IMG/VR virus record: IMGVR_UViG_3300025117_000034
Origin: a virus
Taxonomy: Duplodnaviria > Heunggongvirae > Uroviricota > Caudoviricetes
Direction: 5' to 3' (one strand)
DNA length: 64,000 nucleotides
Part shown: one piece after another, positions 3,349-35,924 of the stretch
Layout of the letters: each line of letters opens with the position of its first letter
Position numbering within the stretch: position 1 is the first letter of the stretch
Made by a program: the position numbers and the translations under genes
The notes under the pieces: generated by a model
What the model was told of the DNA's origin: nothing
What the model saw: the letters and a program-made list of their open reading frames with translations, nothing else
Database searches by the model: none

Positions 3349-3890
3349 TTCTTCTTTGACTGCCTTTCATAAACAATGCGGCTGATCTCAGCAAGCTCTT
3401 CATCTGATAGCTGTGACAGAACACGCATGATATCCTTCTCGCGCTCTGTAAGCTCATTACCAGACTCTAATGGAATCTTGCTGGTGTACTTACGTATGAA
3501 CTCGAGGATGTTGAGGAAGTCCTTGTTAACCTTCTCATAGAAGTCACGTAGCATCTTTAGATCATAGATTGTGTCAAGCTTGCGCCCCTCACTATTGAAC
3601 ACATCAATCTGCTCACCTTCAGCATTGAAGAACTTCATGGTACTGAGCTCAAACACCTCATCACTAAATAGACGGGTCTCTGTCCTGTTTAGGAAGTCAA
3701 TCATCTTCTGGAGGATCGGTAGTCTGCTGATGATGATGTGCGACAGTGCCAGGTTGAGTTGACCAGTGCTCTTCTCTACTTCCCTGTTTACATCTGTGCC
3801 CTGTGATGCCGCCATCTTAGTGATGGTCTCAAAGAAATCAGGACCTAGTAAATTTTTTGTAAGTTCTATAGGACTCTTGGAATCTGCCAT
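3345..3890 (-). CDS. Hypothetical helical protein; terminase small subunit candidate by position
   Basis: Overlaps the terL start by 4 nt; GGAG RBS favours ATG at 3890 over 3905; no motif evidence. Confidence 0.35.
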   Translation of the reverse strand: MADSKSPIELTKNLLGPDFFETITKMAASQGTDVNREVEKSTGQLNLALSHIIISRLPILQKMIDFLNRTETRLFSDEVFELSTMKFFNAEGEQIDVFNSEGRKLDTIYDLKMLRDFYEKVNKDFLNILEFIRKYTSKIPLESGNELTEREKDIMRVLSQLSDEELAEISRIVYERQSKKK

Positions 3891-4284
3891 CTTCGATCTC
3901 CTCATCTAGAATGTCATATGATGCTAAGTTTCTATCAATCTTTCTCTTTATGCTCAATACAGCCGCCTTGCGCAAGCCATACTTTTTTGTCATGTCCTCC
4001 AGTGTCATCTTGCCATAGTCAAAGCATACATTAAGATCACGCTGCATCTTACGAACAACGCTAAGCTTAGGGAACTTAATTGATTTACCAGCGAAGATTG
4101 ACATGAACGTAAAGAAGTCAGCTCCAAGAAGAACGTATAGCTCAAGGAATGTCTTTGTCTTTCTACGTGATGACAGGTAACGAGCAGTCATGAAGTCAAC
4201 TGTATCCCCGTAGCTCTCTATAAAGTCAACCTTATCAATCTTTTGTATAACTTCCTTCTTGGCTTTCTTTGCCATATCACCCAT
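3838..4284 (-). CDS. Mor/C-like transcription activator
   Basis: FAGKSIKFPK...RDLNVCFDY...LEDMTKKYGLRKAAVLSI resembles the Mor-family pattern GG..IYIP...RD..I..ef....eLA.kY.Ls...iy.I. Confidence 0.6.
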   Translation of the reverse strand: MGDMAKKAKKEVIQKIDKVDFIESYGDTVDFMTARYLSSRRKTKTFLELYVLLGADFFTFMSIFAGKSIKFPKLSVVRKMQRDLNVCFDYGKMTLEDMTKKYGLRKAAVLSIKRKIDRNLASYDILDEEIEDGRFQESYRTYKKFTRS

Positions 4285-4729
4285 TCCTCTGGAAGAATCT
4301 AAACAAATAGATACCTTTATAGTGATCTATGTTTTTACCAAATTTCTTGTCTATCCATGAATCGTTGTACTCATCACTTGGAAGAGCAACATCATGGAAG
4401 TCAAAAGTCTCATCTGATACATCAAGGGTTGCTTCATCCTCAACTATCAATGGAAACTTAGTATTTAGATTATATAGGAAATTTGTTAGTCTGTTACGAA
4501 TGCCTGTGAATAAATAGTTTAGGACTTTGTTACTCTCATCAAACGCTTCATCTTTTAGCAGTTTGATAACTTCCAGGTTTGCTATTGCTTCCAGCTCTTC
4601 TCTGTCTTGGTAATACCTAAAGTAGCGATTAATGACAACACTGACCAACTTGTTTAGATTTAGATAAAAATCTTTCTCATCAAATTTATCTCCCCTAGCA
4701 TAGGAGATAAATGAATCTACACTTATCAT
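4277..4729 (-). CDS. Sigma-70 region-2-like protein lacking region 4 (gp55/RsoA-type architecture)
   Basis: LNKLVSVVINRYF..DREELEAIANLEVIKLL..FDES..VLNYLFTGIRNRLTNFL follows sigma region 2.1-2.4; 150 aa with no C-terminal HTH. Confidence 0.6.
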   Translation of the reverse strand: MISVDSFISYARGDKFDEKDFYLNLNKLVSVVINRYFRYYQDREELEAIANLEVIKLLKDEAFDESNKVLNYLFTGIRNRLTNFLYNLNTKFPLIVEDEATLDVSDETFDFHDVALPSDEYNDSWIDKKFGKNIDHYKGIYLFRFFQRNG

Positions 4730-13893: not shown

Positions 13894-14000
13894 ATTCCCA
13901 CCCCTGTTTTTTAGTTCGCATCAAAGGGTTATCTACTGTAACACTTTGAAGGAGAGCAACTTAGTCTTAGATAACAACAAAGTAGAGTTAAAAAACTGCG

Positions 14001-14262
14001 CTTGTTATTATCTTTAGCTTTATTTTTTATTATTACTATTATAGTTTAGTAAGTAGAAAGAATAATATATATAGTAACTAGTATTCTGATCTACTTCAAC
14101 TAACCTTTGATGCCCTCCTTAACTTTCTCTTGGTGAGATTACCCCACCGGCTCGTTTGTGGACCACTGCGGATCCATACGCGGTACAGTCCATATTGTAC
14201 CTAATCATTCATTCTATCTTGTTATTATCTATAGCTATAATTATTATTATTACTATTATAGT
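14001..14262. repeat. Two 45-bp AT-rich direct repeats (14001-14045, 14218-14262)
   Basis: cttgttattatctttagctttattttttattattactattatagt vs cttgttattatctatagctataattattattattactattatagt; 41/45 identical by manual alignment. Confidence 0.9.
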
Positions 14263-14586
14263 CGTCGTCTGCCTACCCAATAAGAAGTGACTAATGCCTT
14301 AGCCAACCTTTATTGTAAATGTTAACTAGTAGTATGGTCGCGTGAGGTAAATACATAGTTACAGGTAGCTCGAGATTATCGTGTCCTTTGGGATCATTGA
14401 TAACCTCATGTGGTTTGAAGTACTCTCAGGTGTTGATCGGTTACTTCGCCCCAGTCAGGATAAGCCACTCCATTAGAACATGTACACAGCCCCACATCTG
14501 ACCCCTTCTGGTTTTAGTTGTTTGCTGCTCCCTTGTTAACCACCCTCTTTCTTAACCCTGGCCGCACGGCATGCGCACCAGGTAGT

Positions 14587-15279: not shown

Positions 15280-15424
15280 TGCCTACAACTAGCTCCAGCA
15301 GTCTCTTCTGAAAGGGTGCTCTGTTCGCACTCATGATGAGCTTAGTAGTAGCATACTCAACCTTTGAGCAGGACACTGGTGGAGCAGACTCAGCTTTGTA
15401 GTCTATAGTTTTTTCGTCGCTCAT
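15272..15424 (-). CDS. Unannotated 50-aa protein with ESAPP motif
   Basis: MSDEKTIDYKAESAPPVSCSKVEYATTKLIMSANRAPFQKRLLELVVGND; fills the gap and overlaps both neighbours. Confidence 0.6.
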   Translation of the reverse strand: MSDEKTIDYKAESAPPVSCSKVEYATTKLIMSANRAPFQKRLLELVVGND

Positions 15425-16589
15425 CTCTGTACCTATCCATGAAGTTTTGATTTATGATGCAGTCAGACTTTACCTTGTCTTCATCAATGCGGATAAATAC
15501 TGGATCCGCTAGTTCACCGTTGGTCTTGAACTTGGTGCCATCAAGCTCTATCACTGATCCCTTTAAGTCACAGTTGAAATCATACCATTTGTGACTTGTC
15601 TCAACCTGGAACAGATGTCTTAGCTCTCTGCCAACTTTTAGGGTGCATAGAAACTGATCTTTTTTCAGTACACCATTTGATACATTCGTATAGATTCTTA
15701 GGCCGTTAACGTGATGATGTTTATTATATAGAGGGGAATCAATGTAACCAAGTACACCACTTCCAGTTATGTCTGAGAAGCTGAGCTTTCTTTTAACACA
15801 GACACCCTTGTTACGAGTGTTGTCGCTCAGGTACGATTTGTATAACTGCTTTGCTATGATACCATTATAACCTAAACTGTGCGCCTTTGATACAAAGGAT
15901 AACTTTTCTTCTTTTTTGGTGCAACGCTTACTAACCATACACGGTATAAGTGAGTGACACATATCCTTGTACACAGCATCAGTATAGCGGGTTCTCTCTA
16001 TGTAGGGCTTGTTAGCTATCAAGGATCTATTAACTACGAGTGTGTCAAGTATATTTACCTTGGACCGTACTTTACGTGGAGCACATGTAAGCATAAACTT
16101 GGTGTACTCAGACATGTCAGAGAACGTACCTTTAACCCTGTTGTCCATCTCTGATGGGTCAATAAGCTCAACCTCAACTCTGACATCAAGCACTAGACCT
16201 TTGATGCGTTGGTTATGCAACAAAGGTAGCCTGGGATTTACCGTCTCACGTAGGAGAGATACGTTACCTATTCTATCTCTGAGTAATAAACTAAATCCTT
16301 CTCTGTCATACACTAAAAAGCCACGTAGTCCATCCATGTTGTACTCAAATGCCCAAGTATCCTCATAGACACCATCTTGGCATTTCTTGTTCATCTCATA
16401 ATAGGAGTAGCACAGCATTGGGCTAGTCAGATGGGCGTACTTCTTGTAGGAGCTTAGCTCTGGATGGCTGTTCAGCTCATCTGTAACAACGCAGGACAGC
16501 TTATCATGCATTGACTGGCACTGGCTTAGGTCAACATTATTGAGCCTCGCAATTGTCTCAATTTCAGTTGTGCTAAGCGTCTTGATCAT
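15390..16589 (-). CDS. ATP-dependent DNA ligase-fold protein, catalytic Lys absent
   Basis: Motif I EYNMDGLR (KxDG Lys = AAC Asn), III VLDVR, IIIa ILDTL, IV YNGIIAK, V KRK, OB-like C-terminus. Confidence 0.7.
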   Translation of the reverse strand: MIKTLSTTEIETIARLNNVDLSQCQSMHDKLSCVVTDELNSHPELSSYKKYAHLTSPMLCYSYYEMNKKCQDGVYEDTWAFEYNMDGLRGFLVYDREGFSLLLRDRIGNVSLLRETVNPRLPLLHNQRIKGLVLDVRVEVELIDPSEMDNRVKGTFSDMSEYTKFMLTCAPRKVRSKVNILDTLVVNRSLIANKPYIERTRYTDAVYKDMCHSLIPCMVSKRCTKKEEKLSFVSKAHSLGYNGIIAKQLYKSYLSDNTRNKGVCVKRKLSFSDITGSGVLGYIDSPLYNKHHHVNGLRIYTNVSNGVLKKDQFLCTLKVGRELRHLFQVETSHKWYDFNCDLKGSVIELDGTKFKTNGELADPVFIRIDEDKVKSDCIINQNFMDRYRDERRKNYRLQS

Positions 16590-16637: not shown

Positions 16638-16692
16638 TTCTGCTTTATTTCTGATATACTCTGGAGTACAATGTTAATAACAGGAGAGTCAA

Positions 16693-17199
16693 ATGAAATT
16701 TCACTATGAGTTCAAGATGGACATTGAGAAGCTGGTTGGTCTTAATGTAGCAGAAATGCTTATGTACCTAGGGCTTCTGAGTCAGCGAAACTCTGGGTAC
16801 TTCAAGGAACATCAGATGAAGCTTGGTAGCAGTGTCATGCTTAGCGAGCGTAGTGGCGAGCGCATGAACAGTGTTGAGACGCGTATTAAGGAACGCCTAG
16901 CAGTTCTGGAGAACTACGAGAAGCTCCAGGAAGAGGTTAGTTCATTGCGGCAGAAGATTGCCATTATGGAGAGCGTTCCTAATGAGCAGGGTGAGATTGA
17001 TGTTATGGTTACACCCATTACAGCTGTTGATATTAATGCTCAGAACAAGTCACGTTTGATGAAGTCAGGGATTGCCACAATTGGTGATGCAGTTAAACTG
17101 GGGAGAGCAGAGCTGGCTAAGATCCCCTACTTCGGTAACAAAGGGATGATTGCTCTTGAAGCGGCGTTGGTTAGATTTAAAGTCGTACTTGAACCTTAG
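16693..17199 (+). CDS. Protein with C-terminal RNA polymerase alphaCTD-like domain
   Basis: TPITAVDINAQNKSRLMKSGIATIGDAVKLGRAELAKIPYFGNKGMIALEAAL aligns by eye to the alphaCTD pattern; coiled-coil linker. Confidence 0.7.
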   Translation: MKFHYEFKMDIEKLVGLNVAEMLMYLGLLSQRNSGYFKEHQMKLGSSVMLSERSGERMNSVETRIKERLAVLENYEKLQEEVSSLRQKIAIMESVPNEQGEIDVMVTPITAVDINAQNKSRLMKSGIATIGDAVKLGRAELAKIPYFGNKGMIALEAALVRFKVVLEP

Positions 17200-17209
17200 G
17201 AGACAGAGT

Positions 17210-17383
17210 ATGCCAAAGAAGATTAAGGCTGATGTGTGCCCTGTGTGCTTCCAGCCTAAAGGACGTTTGCGTAAGAAAAATGCTCAGGGACATGTTGTGG
17301 CATTTCACACCAAGTGCTGGGACGAGTATGTTGAAATGAGTCCTGTCAGGGGTTTTAAAGTAGCTTACACTGATGCAGATTAA
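17210..17383 (+). CDS. Small Zn-finger-like protein
   Basis: MPKKIKADVCPVC...FHTKCW; AGGAG RBS before ATG 17210. Confidence 0.55.
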   Translation: MPKKIKADVCPVCFQPKGRLRKKNAQGHVVAFHTKCWDEYVEMSPVRGFKVAYTDAD

Positions 17384-17471
17384 GGACGATTCGGCTAGTG
17401 GTGATGCCGCCTGACTGTAAATCAGGTGCCTTGCGCTAAACTCGGTGGTTCAAATCCATCATCGTCCACCA
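17384..17471 (+). tRNA. tRNA-Tyr (GTA)
   Basis: Acceptor GGACGAT/ATCGTCC, anticodon arm CCTGA-CTGTAAA-TCAGG, long variable arm, T-loop TTCAAAT, encoded CCA. Confidence 0.92.
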
Positions 17472-17966: not shown

Positions 17967-18039
17967 GACTTGGTAGTGTAACCTGGTAACACACCAGTCT
18001 CCAACACTGGTAATCTGAGTCCAAATCTCAGCCGAGTCG
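17967..18039 (+). tRNA. tRNA-Trp (CCA), no encoded 3' CCA
   Basis: Acceptor GACTTGG/CCGAGTC, D-stem GTGT/ACAC, anticodon arm CCAGT-CTCCAAC-ACTGG, T-arm CTGAG-TCCAAAT-CTCAG. Confidence 0.85.
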
Positions 18040-18058
18040 CATTTAAAAGGAACTGTTT

Positions 18059-21023: not shown

Positions 21024-21764
21024 ATGATTACAATACTTGAGACAGTAGTTGGCTCAACACTTCATGGCATAGCTGTCAATGATGGTCTTGAGGACACTGA
21101 CTACATGGGTGTCTGCATTGAGGATAAGAAGAAGCTCATTGGCCTTGCTGAGTGGAAGGGTACAATTGTAGAGCGTACTAAGCCGGAGGGTGTTCGCAGT
21201 GAGGCTGGTGATGTTGACCGTGTAACCTATGGGCTTCGTAAGTACCTTCGCCTAGCTCTAGGCGGTAACCCGTCAGTACTGCTTCCATTGTTTGCCCCAA
21301 CACAGTTCATTACCCAGTGCACAACAGAGGGTGACGAGCTCCGTGGCCTAGCCAGTAAGATAGTGTCAGCAAAGATCAGGACTCCGTTTATGGGCTATGC
21401 ACGGCAGCAGCACGAGCGTATGCTGGGACTAAGAGGCCAGCGCAATGTAACAAGACCAGAGCTTGTTGATAAGTATGGTTATGACACAAAATATGCATCC
21501 CATATCATTCGTCTATGTATACAGGGGATGGAGCTGTTATCTTGCGGTAAGCTGTCACTGCCAATGGCTGAGCCTGATGCTAAGTTCCTACGCGGTATTA
21601 GAAAGGGAGCACTTAAGCTCGGTGAGGTGTCAGAGGTTATCCTGGACTATGAGAACAAACTTGCTACATGCCCAACAATGCTGCCAGCAGAGCCAGACTA
21701 TGAATTCGTTGAGAACTGGATGACGGACAAGTATATGCACTATTGGATGAACGACGGAGAGTAA
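21024..21764 (+). CDS. Pol-beta-superfamily nucleotidyltransferase (RlaP/PF10127-like)
   Basis: VVGSTLHG...EDTDYMGV, YGLRKYLRL...GNPS, YDTKYASHIIRL. Confidence 0.8.
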   Translation: MITILETVVGSTLHGIAVNDGLEDTDYMGVCIEDKKKLIGLAEWKGTIVERTKPEGVRSEAGDVDRVTYGLRKYLRLALGGNPSVLLPLFAPTQFITQCTTEGDELRGLASKIVSAKIRTPFMGYARQQHERMLGLRGQRNVTRPELVDKYGYDTKYASHIIRLCIQGMELLSCGKLSLPMAEPDAKFLRGIRKGALKLGEVSEVILDYENKLATCPTMLPAEPDYEFVENWMTDKYMHYWMNDGE

Positions 21765-22908: not shown

Positions 22909-23508
22909 ATGGCACGTATATGGTTAGACGCAGGGCATAGCGGAGTACAGGCTGGCAGTGATCCAGGTGCAGTCAAGTTTATCAAGGAAGCTGCAGCTAA
23001 TCTAACTGTATCCCTTGAAGCTGAGCGTCTACTAACTGAAGCAGGGCACACAGTTGGCATGACACGTAGAAGCGATGCATCAATTATCTCCTTGAATGAC
23101 CGCTGCAAGCTAGCCAATGCTTTCAAGGCTGACTACTTCATCTCGATCCATCATAATGCTGGCGGTGGTGACGGCTATGAGATCATTCACTCGATCTATC
23201 ACGGCAAAGGTCTTGACCTAGCCAAGTCAATAAGCACTGAGTTCAACAAGCTTCAGAACCCACATGGCACACATGGCATCTATGACAAAGAAGGCCGCAA
23301 CGGAGATTACTTTGCTGTCATCCGTGACACACACATGCCAGCCATTATCACTGAGTTCGCCTACGTTGACAACGCAAAAGATGTTCAGGCTATTGACTCC
23401 AAGGAAGATCTACTGCTAGAAGCTAAAGCCATTGTTACTGGCACCCTTAATTATCTAAAGAAACTAAATGAGGGTTCAGCAAAGGATTCCTTGAAACAAG
23501 CCAAATAG
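22909..23508 (+). CDS. N-acetylmuramoyl-L-alanine amidase (Amidase_3) endolysin, no cell-wall-binding domain
   Basis: LDAGH, E..AN, ISIHHNA, AVIR...PAIITEFAYVDN. Confidence 0.9.
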   Translation: MARIWLDAGHSGVQAGSDPGAVKFIKEAAANLTVSLEAERLLTEAGHTVGMTRRSDASIISLNDRCKLANAFKADYFISIHHNAGGGDGYEIIHSIYHGKGLDLAKSISTEFNKLQNPHGTHGIYDKEGRNGDYFAVIRDTHMPAIITEFAYVDNAKDVQAIDSKEDLLLEAKAIVTGTLNYLKKLNEGSAKDSLKQAK

Positions 23509-31234: not shown

Positions 31235-31978
31235 ATGGAAACAAACAGTCTGCTGGATGAAGCAGAAGCATTGGTAGGCAAGCAGGAAGTCGTAACTGAA
31301 GAGCAGCCAGTGACTTCTGAAGATATCCAAGAGGTGTCATTTGAGGGCTATAAGTTCACTGACAATCCTTTTGAGATTGACTCTCTGTTTGAGCAGTGCT
31401 ATGGTGTCAGCAATGCATCAGAGACTTTCCGTAATCTGTACATCAAGGAAGGCGACGAAACAGTTGATATTCGTGCAAGCCTTCATCGGTTCAGCCCTGC
31501 CGTGTTTGTTCAGGTTGCAAGCGAGAGCCTAGAGGAAACCAAGCAGTTCCTCTCTGACATGTTCGGCATGGGTGCAGTCAAGGAAAACATTGAGGTAGCA
31601 GAGCCAGAGGTAGCAGTGTTCGAATCAGAAGTAACTTCACTAGGCACAGCCACTTGGAGTGACACAGCAGAAGAGCCAGTCATTGCTCGTATCTTCTTTG
31701 ACAATGCAGACATTGACATGGTTCAGACTCCTAATGGTATGATCACACGGGAAGATTATGATAGCTTTGAGATCAAGGAAGAGCTTGAACGTGAGCTAAG
31801 CTTTGATCGCCTCAGTGCACAGCTCCAGGATTGGCGTGACAAATACGGCTTGAAGGTTGCCAAGGAACACCGCATTGCAGTTCAGAAAGCAGAGCAGAGG
31901 CTCAAGGAGAAGAAAGAAAGTGTCCAAGAATCCATTAAGCGTCTACGCGCAAAGGTTTCGGCAGACACTGAACAGTAA
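31235..31978 (+). CDS. Acidic protein with C-terminal coiled coil (scaffold/core candidate)
   Basis: 247 aa, very E-rich; GGAGG RBS; own promoter and terminator. Confidence 0.45.
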   Translation: METNSLLDEAEALVGKQEVVTEEQPVTSEDIQEVSFEGYKFTDNPFEIDSLFEQCYGVSNASETFRNLYIKEGDETVDIRASLHRFSPAVFVQVASESLEETKQFLSDMFGMGAVKENIEVAEPEVAVFESEVTSLGTATWSDTAEEPVIARIFFDNADIDMVQTPNGMITREDYDSFEIKEELERELSFDRLSAQLQDWRDKYGLKVAKEHRIAVQKAEQRLKEKKESVQESIKRLRAKVSADTEQ

Positions 31979-35847: not shown

Positions 35848-35924
35848 TACGGGATAGTTTAATTTGGTAAAACGTCGGTCTCATACGCCGAAGACTCTGG
35901 ATTCGATTTCCAGTCCCGTTACCA
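35848..35924 (+). tRNA. tRNA-Met (CAT), initiator-like
   Basis: Acceptor TACGGGA/TCCCGTT (1:72 U.U), D-stem GTTT/AAAC, anticodon arm TCGGT-CTCATAC-GCCGA, T-arm CTGGA-TTCGATT-TCCAG, ACCA end. Confidence 0.88.

Follow-up and report, generated by a model that had tools for sequence, protein, structure and literature searches.

What could a tailed phage do with the C-terminal domain of the RNA polymerase alpha subunit (alphaCTD) when the rest of that subunit is missing? The question is raised by a gene at positions 16693..17199 (+) of a 64,000-nucleotide stretch of viral DNA (Caudoviricetes), referred to here as the window, which comprises bases 926-64925 of the IMG/VR record IMGVR_UViG_3300025117_000034. 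In bacteria the alphaCTD is the hub through which RNA polymerase is recruited by activators and UP elements; it is modified by the Alt and ModA proteins of phage T4. The open reading frame considered here is a real gene that starts with ATG and encodes 168 residues followed by a stop codon. Its product has a C-terminal domain of the alphaCTD fold, and we tentatively propose that the protein serves as an accessory transcription adaptor which would act on the host RNA polymerase or its factors in the early phase of infection. The following regions have been recognised within the gene.

16732..16830, + strand: residues 14-46, the conserved core of the N-terminal part: a helical orphan module that may serve for docking
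16831..16971, + strand: long helix (residues 47-93) with leucine-zipper heptads at residues 61-92, a probable dimerisation element
16972..16995, + strand: acidic linker (residues 94-101), modelled with low confidence
16996..17193, + strand: alphaCTD-type domain (residues 102-167)

Identity and fold of the C-terminal domain

The initial annotation of this locus had pointed to an alphaCTD pattern, SGIATIGDAVKLGRAELAKIPYFGNKGMIALEAAL, in the C-terminal part of the protein. The pattern is present in the sequence, and its assignment agrees with the Pfam, PDB, phmmer and domain-profile searches and with two independent structure searches. The top Pfam match of the 168-residue protein is RNA_pol_A_CTD (PF03118; residues 108-151, E 0.0046), with HHH_5 weaker (E 0.077); the gathering threshold of PF03118 (23.8 bits) is not reached either in the protein search (17.1 bits) or in the six-frame search of the genome (18.2 bits). 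RNA polymerase alpha accounts for 28 of the 33 weak sequence matches in the PDB, the best being 8dkc_A (E 0.0016). An exhaustive HMMER (phmmer) search of 1.84 billion representatives has identified 31 proteins, 30 of them non-self, with E-values down to 5e-12. PF03118 is present in 29 of these 30 relatives, often in tandem; nine of the 30 fuse the alphaCTD domain to sigma-70 region 4, and fusions to TPR also occur. The protein also scores 46.7 bits, end to end over all 54 positions, against a profile of 87 alphaCTD-like domains from which it was itself left out together with P0001, P0009 and P0019.

The AlphaFold model of residues 101-168, which was derived from an alignment holding alphaCTD-bearing relatives, has values of 76-88 in the predicted local distance difference test (pLDDT). 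Among the PDB matches listed by Foldseek, all are RNA polymerase alpha, with template-modelling (TM) scores of 0.73-0.93 normalised to isolated alphaCTD chains and superpositions of 0.8-2.3 Å root-mean-square deviation (rmsd) over 56-73 alignment columns. A VIA-align search of 48,161 PDB representatives, which does not rely on Foldseek, places alphaCTDs in the top five positions (1z3e_B, Z 12.8; 4mex_A, 11.9; 2max, 10.5; 8w9z_A, 10.1; 1doq_A, 9.5), and the match to 1z3e_B has an rmsd of 1.2 Å over 66 residues. Other helix-hairpin-helix (HhH) domains rank lower, namely the RAD51-type N-terminal domains (Z 8.3 and 8.2), Rev1 (6.4) and UvrC (5.8). The possibility that the domain might be a generic HhH is not supported by this ranking, with alphaCTDs at Z 12.8-9.5 against at most 8.3 for other HhH domains, and comparison of sequence and model assigns residues 102-167 specifically to the alphaCTD fold, which is compact and helical and has two HhH-like turns. 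No Pfam match to the N-terminal domain of alpha (alphaNTD; RNA_pol_L or RNA_pol_A_bac) is seen at E up to 1 in the 168-residue protein. The original description of a free-standing alphaCTD-type domain encoded by a phage, lacking an alphaNTD and joined through a coiled coil to an orphan N-terminal part, therefore holds.

The UP-element (DNA) determinant of the E. coli alphaCTD comprises R265, N268, C269, G296, K298 and S299. With E. coli numbering mapped through the HMMER alignment to 1coo and 2jzb, two of these six residues are kept in the phage protein (G296 as G148 and K298 as K150), and the others are replaced (R265 by Q117, N268 by S120, C269 by R121 and S299 by G151). The IGD and P.FG.K hairpin motifs are kept. 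In the 261 patch, which contacts sigma region 4, D259 and E261 correspond to A111 and D113, and in the 287 patch, which contacts activators, T285, E286, V287 and E288 correspond to G137, R138, A139 and E140. By this alignment the activator and sigma contact patches of E. coli are largely not kept, although both patches vary between bacteria, and the comparison speaks only for those of E. coli.

Among the 91 alphaCTD-like domains of the relatives, arginine occupies the R265 position in 56 and asparagine the N268 position in 53; domains that lack both are in the minority. In P0019, whose domain is the most similar (40% identity), threonine and glutamate stand at these two positions. Its genomic context was considered as a clue and is uninformative, the gene being chromosomal and near uvrA, uvrC and ddl. 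The domain of the phage protein is basic (residues 107-168; net charge +4, pI 9.9). Since R265 and N268 are lost, G296 and K298 are kept and the net charge is basic, we read it as a module that would tether without sequence specificity and not as an UP-element reader. It may bind the nucleic-acid backbone unspecifically or it may bind protein.

These replacements bear on the proposal, made in the initial annotation, that the protein is a decoy. A free domain that competed with the host alphaCTD for UP elements or class I activators would shut off host promoters; the genuine alphaCTD fold is consistent with such a role, and a zipper dimer would mimic the paired C-terminal domains of the alpha dimer. 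Precedents for phage action on this domain also exist, namely the ADP-ribosylation of Arg265 in both alphaCTDs by T4 (PMC2988020) and the cleavage of alpha, described as caused by a phage protein (Rac; PMC7552054). The proposal is not sustained in its faithful form. R265 and N268, which most domains of the relatives carry, are replaced and the contact patches are changed, and a faithful decoy of UP elements or activators is therefore judged unlikely. The identity of the domain to any RpoA alphaCTD is only about 17-27%, too low for a gene copied recently from a host. We consider the protein more likely to be a transcription adaptor than a faithful decoy.

The N-terminal modules and the conserved zinc-finger neighbour

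The sole distant relative in the family is P0009, encoded on the 640-nt metagenome contig L005 (25-26% identity; pairwise BLASTP E 3e-14). Viral contigs were scanned with the protein and with the PolA of the phage, and viral and metagenome contigs with the alignment of the zinc-finger protein described below; none beyond near-identical copies and L005 was found. Word-index searches with the protein, P0009 and the zinc-finger alignment and a tblastn search of 50,697 phage records likewise returned nothing beyond these.

The near-identical P0001 differs from the protein by one change, Y25N, and copies in other samples are otherwise identical. As a side observation, this change (codon 25, 16765-16767) is the sole difference among copies, and Y25 is invariant between both family members. 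For a selection analysis, the microdiversity in the copies from other samples amounts to the one Y25N change and nothing more.

The homology with L005 extends 5' of the annotated ATG of the L005 gene, to an in-frame stop ("VVGIDVAEL" vs "LVGLNVAEM"), and the conserved N-terminal core therefore spans residues 14-46 of the phage protein. It has also been observed that L005:18-60 has no ATG, GTG or TTG before the in-frame stop, with ATC at 21 and ATT at 42 as possible starts; either a non-canonical start or an assembly error accounts for this. Within the core, 15 positions are invariant between both family members (V15, G16, V19, A20, E21, Y25, L26, L29, S30, N33, F37, E39, K43, L44 and G45). The core has low confidence in the AlphaFold model and no Pfam, PDB or Atlas match, the Pfam and PDB searches having been extended to E 10. 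The ESM Atlas search with residues 1-100 gave no usable feature match, and its structural matches were long helices only. The N-terminal domain had been described at the outset as unknown, and these searches agree with that description.

Two attempts to recognise a DNA-binding fold in the N-terminal part have been rejected. A helix-turn-helix (HTH) like that of sigma region 4 was suggested when MAFFT placed ERMNSVETRIKERL under ERIRQIEAKALRKL, but PF04545 gave no match and PDB profile searches lent no support. An hhalign comparison of the N-terminal alignment with the region-4 parts of P0016 and P0027 gave a probability of 0.3%, with only the zipper matched. A winged-helix pattern resembling replication initiators, noted by eye in residues 17-60, has no Pfam or PDB match even at E 10.

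The coiled coil claimed in the initial annotation is seen in the model as one long helix (residues 47-92), in clean heptads over residues 61-92 with V61, R64, R68, V71, Y75, L78, V82, L85, I89 and M92 at the a/d positions, and in profile searches of the helix part, which match only the bZIP, GCN4 and ROCK coiled coils. On sequence and model, the leucine zipper most likely makes the protein a dimer. The linker that follows has pLDDT below 50 at residues 94-100 and a net charge of -3 over residues 94-106.

The gene immediately downstream also encodes a small protein.

17210..17383, + strand: zinc-finger gene of 57 residues, adjoining the alphaCTD-like gene

On L005 the corresponding zinc-finger gene begins 2 nt after the stop codon of the homologue and its product is 54% identical to that of the window, and the pair formed by the alphaCTD-like gene and the zinc-finger gene is, by sequence, conserved. 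The gene is probably co-transcribed with the alphaCTD-like gene, and its 57-residue product is a candidate partner. Its ligands are arranged as CPVC-x19-H-x2-C. Pfam returns only zf-RING_2 at E 0.06 and a 10-residue match to DUF7419, and the model (pLDDT 77) consists of a beta-hairpin and a helix with weak likeness to RING, U-box and B-box structures (Z at most 3.6). These weak matches lean towards the treble clefs of the RING, U-box and B-box families, and an E3-like role is conceivable. An identical zinc-finger protein has been read on 23 contigs, the longest of 139,741 bp, and is indexed in 37 collection blocks, so the phage recurs in other samples.

Promoter type, neighbourhood and the rival readings

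The region upstream of the alphaCTD-like gene contains the following signals.

16643..16672, + strand: probable sigma70-like promoter, CTTTATT-N17-TACAAT
16682..16688, + strand: ribosome-binding site AGGAGAG, 4 nt 5' of the ATG, by direct reading of the sequence

In the putative promoter, a 17-nt spacer separates the -35-like element TTTATT (16644-16649) from TACAAT (16667-16672), the -10 element. The -10-type motif GTA[CT]AAT[AG]T has 18 copies in the genome, and 13 of them are followed within 70 nt by a gene start on the same strand, against 6% expected (binomial P 8e-13). In seven of these 13, as in the alphaCTD-like gene, C/GTTTA starts exactly 24 nt before the -10; in most, the start of CTTTA(AA), TAGAA or CTTGA precedes the -10 hexamer by exactly 24 nt, a distance that corresponds to a 17-nt spacer. 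This promoter type is common to 12 other gene starts, that of the sigma2-like gene included. Because its putative promoter is of this common sigma70-like type, the alphaCTD-like gene is probably early, and the motifs suggest that it is probably read early in infection by the host sigma70-type polymerase. At the position equivalent to the ribosome-binding site, contig L005 begins with an identical AACAGGA.

The spacer of the promoter contains the palindrome TACTC-TG-GAGTA (16657-16668), a 5+5 inverted repeat. It has been considered as an operator and set aside as too weak, with one copy in the genome where 0.2 is expected. It nevertheless belongs to a further reading, in which the protein would be a Cro-like product of the first gene of its own operon and would regulate the divergent promoters. 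The position of the gene beside the 103-nt divergent control region, the genome-wide unique palindrome within its own promoter and the probably dimerising zipper are in keeping with this. A single palindrome is weak evidence at such an expectation, and no HTH has been found, the hhalign comparison with sigma region 4 and the Pfam and PDB searches being as described above; autoregulation is accordingly given little credence.

A second motif, the 11-mer TTACTTATACA, is present in five copies, all in the right orientation and with a gene start about 35-45 nt downstream. It is possibly a phage-specific and perhaps late promoter, a candidate target of the sigma2-like and Mor-like pair or of a sigma factor resembling the extracytoplasmic-function (ECF) type. 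The T4 late-promoter motif TATAAATA was also tried; it has five copies in the genome and no obvious link to gene starts. The copies of the 11-mer and the genes for candidate sigma and Mor proteins are as follows.

31189 and 34872, and window-equivalent 109158, 110153 and 130087: copies of TTACTTATACA; the first two precede the genes at 31235 and 34915 of the rightward block, upstream of the tail-sheath gene
4277..4729, - strand: sigma2-like gene (Sigma70_r2 18.0 bits, below the cut-off)
3838..4284, - strand: Mor-like gene (Mor 19.7-20.1 bits, below the cut-off)
G000:C1:66908-67468 (window-equivalent 65983-66543; L009:1465-2022), - strand: ECF-like sigma of 186 residues, just outside the window

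The 186-residue protein has sigma-70 region 4 at 24.6-26.9 bits, above the Pfam cut-off, and a region-2-like stretch recognised by eye (DTYV...WGTYIYQCVHN); to judge from these features it is probably a complete small phage sigma factor of the ECF type. The initial annotation had suggested that the sigma2-like, Mor-like and alphaCTD-like proteins could form a modular takeover kit. In a kit of this sort for promoter recognition, to which the ECF-like sigma might belong as well, the protein would be a surrogate alphaCTD for a phage-specific holoenzyme. The phage does encode all these candidates, other phages fuse sigma region 4 to an alphaCTD-type domain, and the 11-mer precedes five genes. Yet the genes lie scattered, near 4 kb, 16.7 kb and 66 kb when counted in window coordinates. 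A distance of 12 kb separates the sigma2-like and Mor-like genes from the alphaCTD-like gene; they are on the other strand and in another transcription unit, with matches that stay below the family cut-offs. No link between them and the alphaCTD-like gene was found in this analysis, and the contig scans yielded no related genome for a comparison of co-occurrence. The kit is regarded as improbable.

The source virus record is complete (139,571 bp, with direct terminal repeats) and belongs to a new, uncultured myovirus for which family matches are few. The alphaCTD-like gene is the first of the rightward block, as had been stated in the initial annotation; the block is long and is transcribed from the 103-nt divergent region. 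The surrounding features are listed below.

15390..16589, leftward: ATP-dependent-ligase-like gene (PF01068, E 7e-8), across the divergent region from the alphaCTD-like gene
17384-17471: tRNA-Tyr(GTA), between small open reading frames of the operon opened by the alphaCTD-like gene
17967-18040: tRNA-Trp(CCA), in the same operon, with two small open reading frames between it and tRNA-Tyr
21024-21764: nucleotidyltransferase of the RlaP family (Pol-beta type, RNA-repair pathway; E 1e-24), amid the replication block
22909-23508: endolysin-type Amidase_3 gene (E 2e-33), amid the replication block
35848-35924: tRNA-Met(CAT), farther downstream than the other two tRNA genes

After tRNA-Trp the rightward block continues with a primase-type zinc-finger gene and PolA, and the structural genes, tail sheath among them, come after the amidase. 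The leftward side encodes RecA-like, Mre11-like phosphoesterase, clamp-loader, sigma2-like and Mor-like proteins. Separately, a stretch of roughly 700 bp at 13894-14586 is AT-rich and non-coding. It contains a direct repeat of 45 nt (copies at 14001 and 14218; 91% identical) and a second repeat of 29 nt (72% identical), and is a candidate for an origin or for a region of non-coding RNA. The -10-type motif that it carries at 14200 (-) has no gene within 300 nt.

This neighbourhood raises the question whether the protein belongs to replication or recombination, its HhH-type domain tethering a replisome or repair component (the ligase, the primase zinc finger or PolA) to DNA in a sequence-unspecific way. 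The gene stands at the head of a block with a primase-type zinc finger and PolA and faces the ligase-like gene, with the RecA-like, Mre11-like and clamp-loader genes nearby. A basic domain that keeps the equivalents of G296 and K298 would suit such a tether, as would the weaker structural likeness to the HhH domains of RAD51 (N-terminal), Rev1 and UvrC (Z 5.8-8.3). These repair-type domains are, however, outranked by alphaCTDs; the sequence relatives are PF03118 proteins, in which fusions to sigma region 4 and TPR are found, and among the 25 families displayed of the 73 in the relatives none is a replication enzyme domain. Two phage-borne, single-domain relatives are also informative, P0032 lying among RusA and DUF551 genes and P0022 just upstream of the terminase; the phage-borne relatives checked thus occupy the usual sites of late-gene regulators. 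As the domain is of alphaCTD type by sequence and structure, is fused elsewhere to sigma region 4 and has relatives at such sites, we favour transcription over replication, and hold the replication reading to be rather unlikely.

A possible transcription adaptor and the systems it resembles

The protein that we tentatively read as an accessory transcription adaptor would consist of three modules: a family-specific N-terminal core of 33 residues, a leucine-zipper helix and, past a flexible acidic linker, a domain of alphaCTD fold. Dimerised through its zipper, the protein would display a tethered pair of alphaCTD-type domains in the manner of the alpha dimer of RNA polymerase, without the alphaNTD required for assembly into the enzyme. 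The pair would serve as a tether, without sequence specificity, to DNA or a partner, and docking on RNA polymerase or the zinc-finger neighbour would be the task of the N-terminal core. The small zinc-finger protein, which is translated immediately afterwards, possibly works together with the alphaCTD-like protein. This arrangement suggests that the latter binds nucleic acid or a partner and has a role in transcription.

Several points weigh against the adaptor reading. No fold or family can be recognised for the N-terminal core, and the interactions proposed for the protein are predictions. The presence of alphaCTD-bearing relatives in the alignment behind the AlphaFold model favours an alphaCTD fold. 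The family has two distinct members only, which makes arguments from conservation thin. The L005 member, the domain of which is also basic (net +4, pI 9.3), has serine in place of R265 and asparagine in place of G296, and its score with the domain profile is only 20 bits. The gene heads a replication block with the primase-type zinc finger and PolA and not a regulatory cluster. The domain was compared with the alphaCTD of E. coli, which may differ from that of the host.

The domain itself is known and recurs in phages; what is new is that it comes with an orphan N-terminal core and a zipper, that R265 and N268 are lost and that a zinc-finger neighbour is conserved. Taken alone, the protein is one divergent example, known here from sequence and model. 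Being small and probably dimeric, with its DNA-reading residues lost and a zinc-finger gene beside it, it allows the decoy, adaptor and DNA-tether models to be clearly contrasted.

Among known systems, P2 Ogr and P4 Delta offer an analogy for the gene pair only, in that a small zinc-binding phage protein works with an alphaCTD (PMC3152322). Ogr is a small zinc-binding activator that needs a site of contact at alpha's C-terminus, and p4 of phi29 also acts via alpha (PMC3152322). Unlike the pair described here, Ogr uses the alphaCTD of the host. The ligand spacing differs as well, the zinc-finger protein having CPVC...H..C where the Ogr/Delta family has a four-cysteine pattern, and no Ogr/Delta sequence match is found, the zinc-finger protein having no such Pfam match at E up to 1. 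One may speculate, at low probability, that the alphaCTD-like and zinc-finger proteins form a self-contained module, an Ogr-like activator with a private dimeric surrogate of the alphaCTD, docked on the host core RNA polymerase beside the sigma2-like, Mor-like and ECF-like sigma proteins of the phage. The phage would in that case rebuild the half of the holoenzyme that reads the upstream promoter and bypass the host alphaCTD.

Closer in architecture are the phage proteins that combine sigma-70 region 4 with an alphaCTD (P0016/P0032 and P0027), for which no characterised example was found. They are phage-borne and among the best full-protein relatives, and like the present protein have a helical or coiled-coil segment followed by a single C-terminal alphaCTD-type domain. 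In contrast to it, they carry a clear region-4 HTH (60.6 and 34.6 bits) and keep both R265 and N268. The domains closest to that of the phage protein (E 5e-12 to 1e-6) occur in bacterial multi-repeat alphaCTD-like proteins (P0002, P0003 and P0007), which differ in having two to seven tandem PF03118 domains, some with TPR, and neither the zipper nor the N-terminal core.

With the alphaCTD of RpoA itself (PF03118; 1z3e_B, 4mex_A, 3k4g, 1lb2) the domain shares the fold, the IGD and P.FG.K motifs and the C-terminal position behind a flexible linker, here carried on a probably dimerising module. Unlike RpoA, the phage protein has no alphaNTD and therefore cannot enter the enzyme by the usual route. 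It has substitutions at R265, N268, C269 and S299 and across most of the 261 and 287 patches, and its domain is basic, in contrast to the slight acidity of the aligned E. coli segment (by hand count from the alignment). A search of the open literature, with subscription journals outside its scope, found no description of a phage-encoded alphaCTD paralogue. Phages are known to modify, cleave or exploit the alphaCTD of their host, and a free alphaCTD-type domain encoded by the phage itself would be a different strategy.

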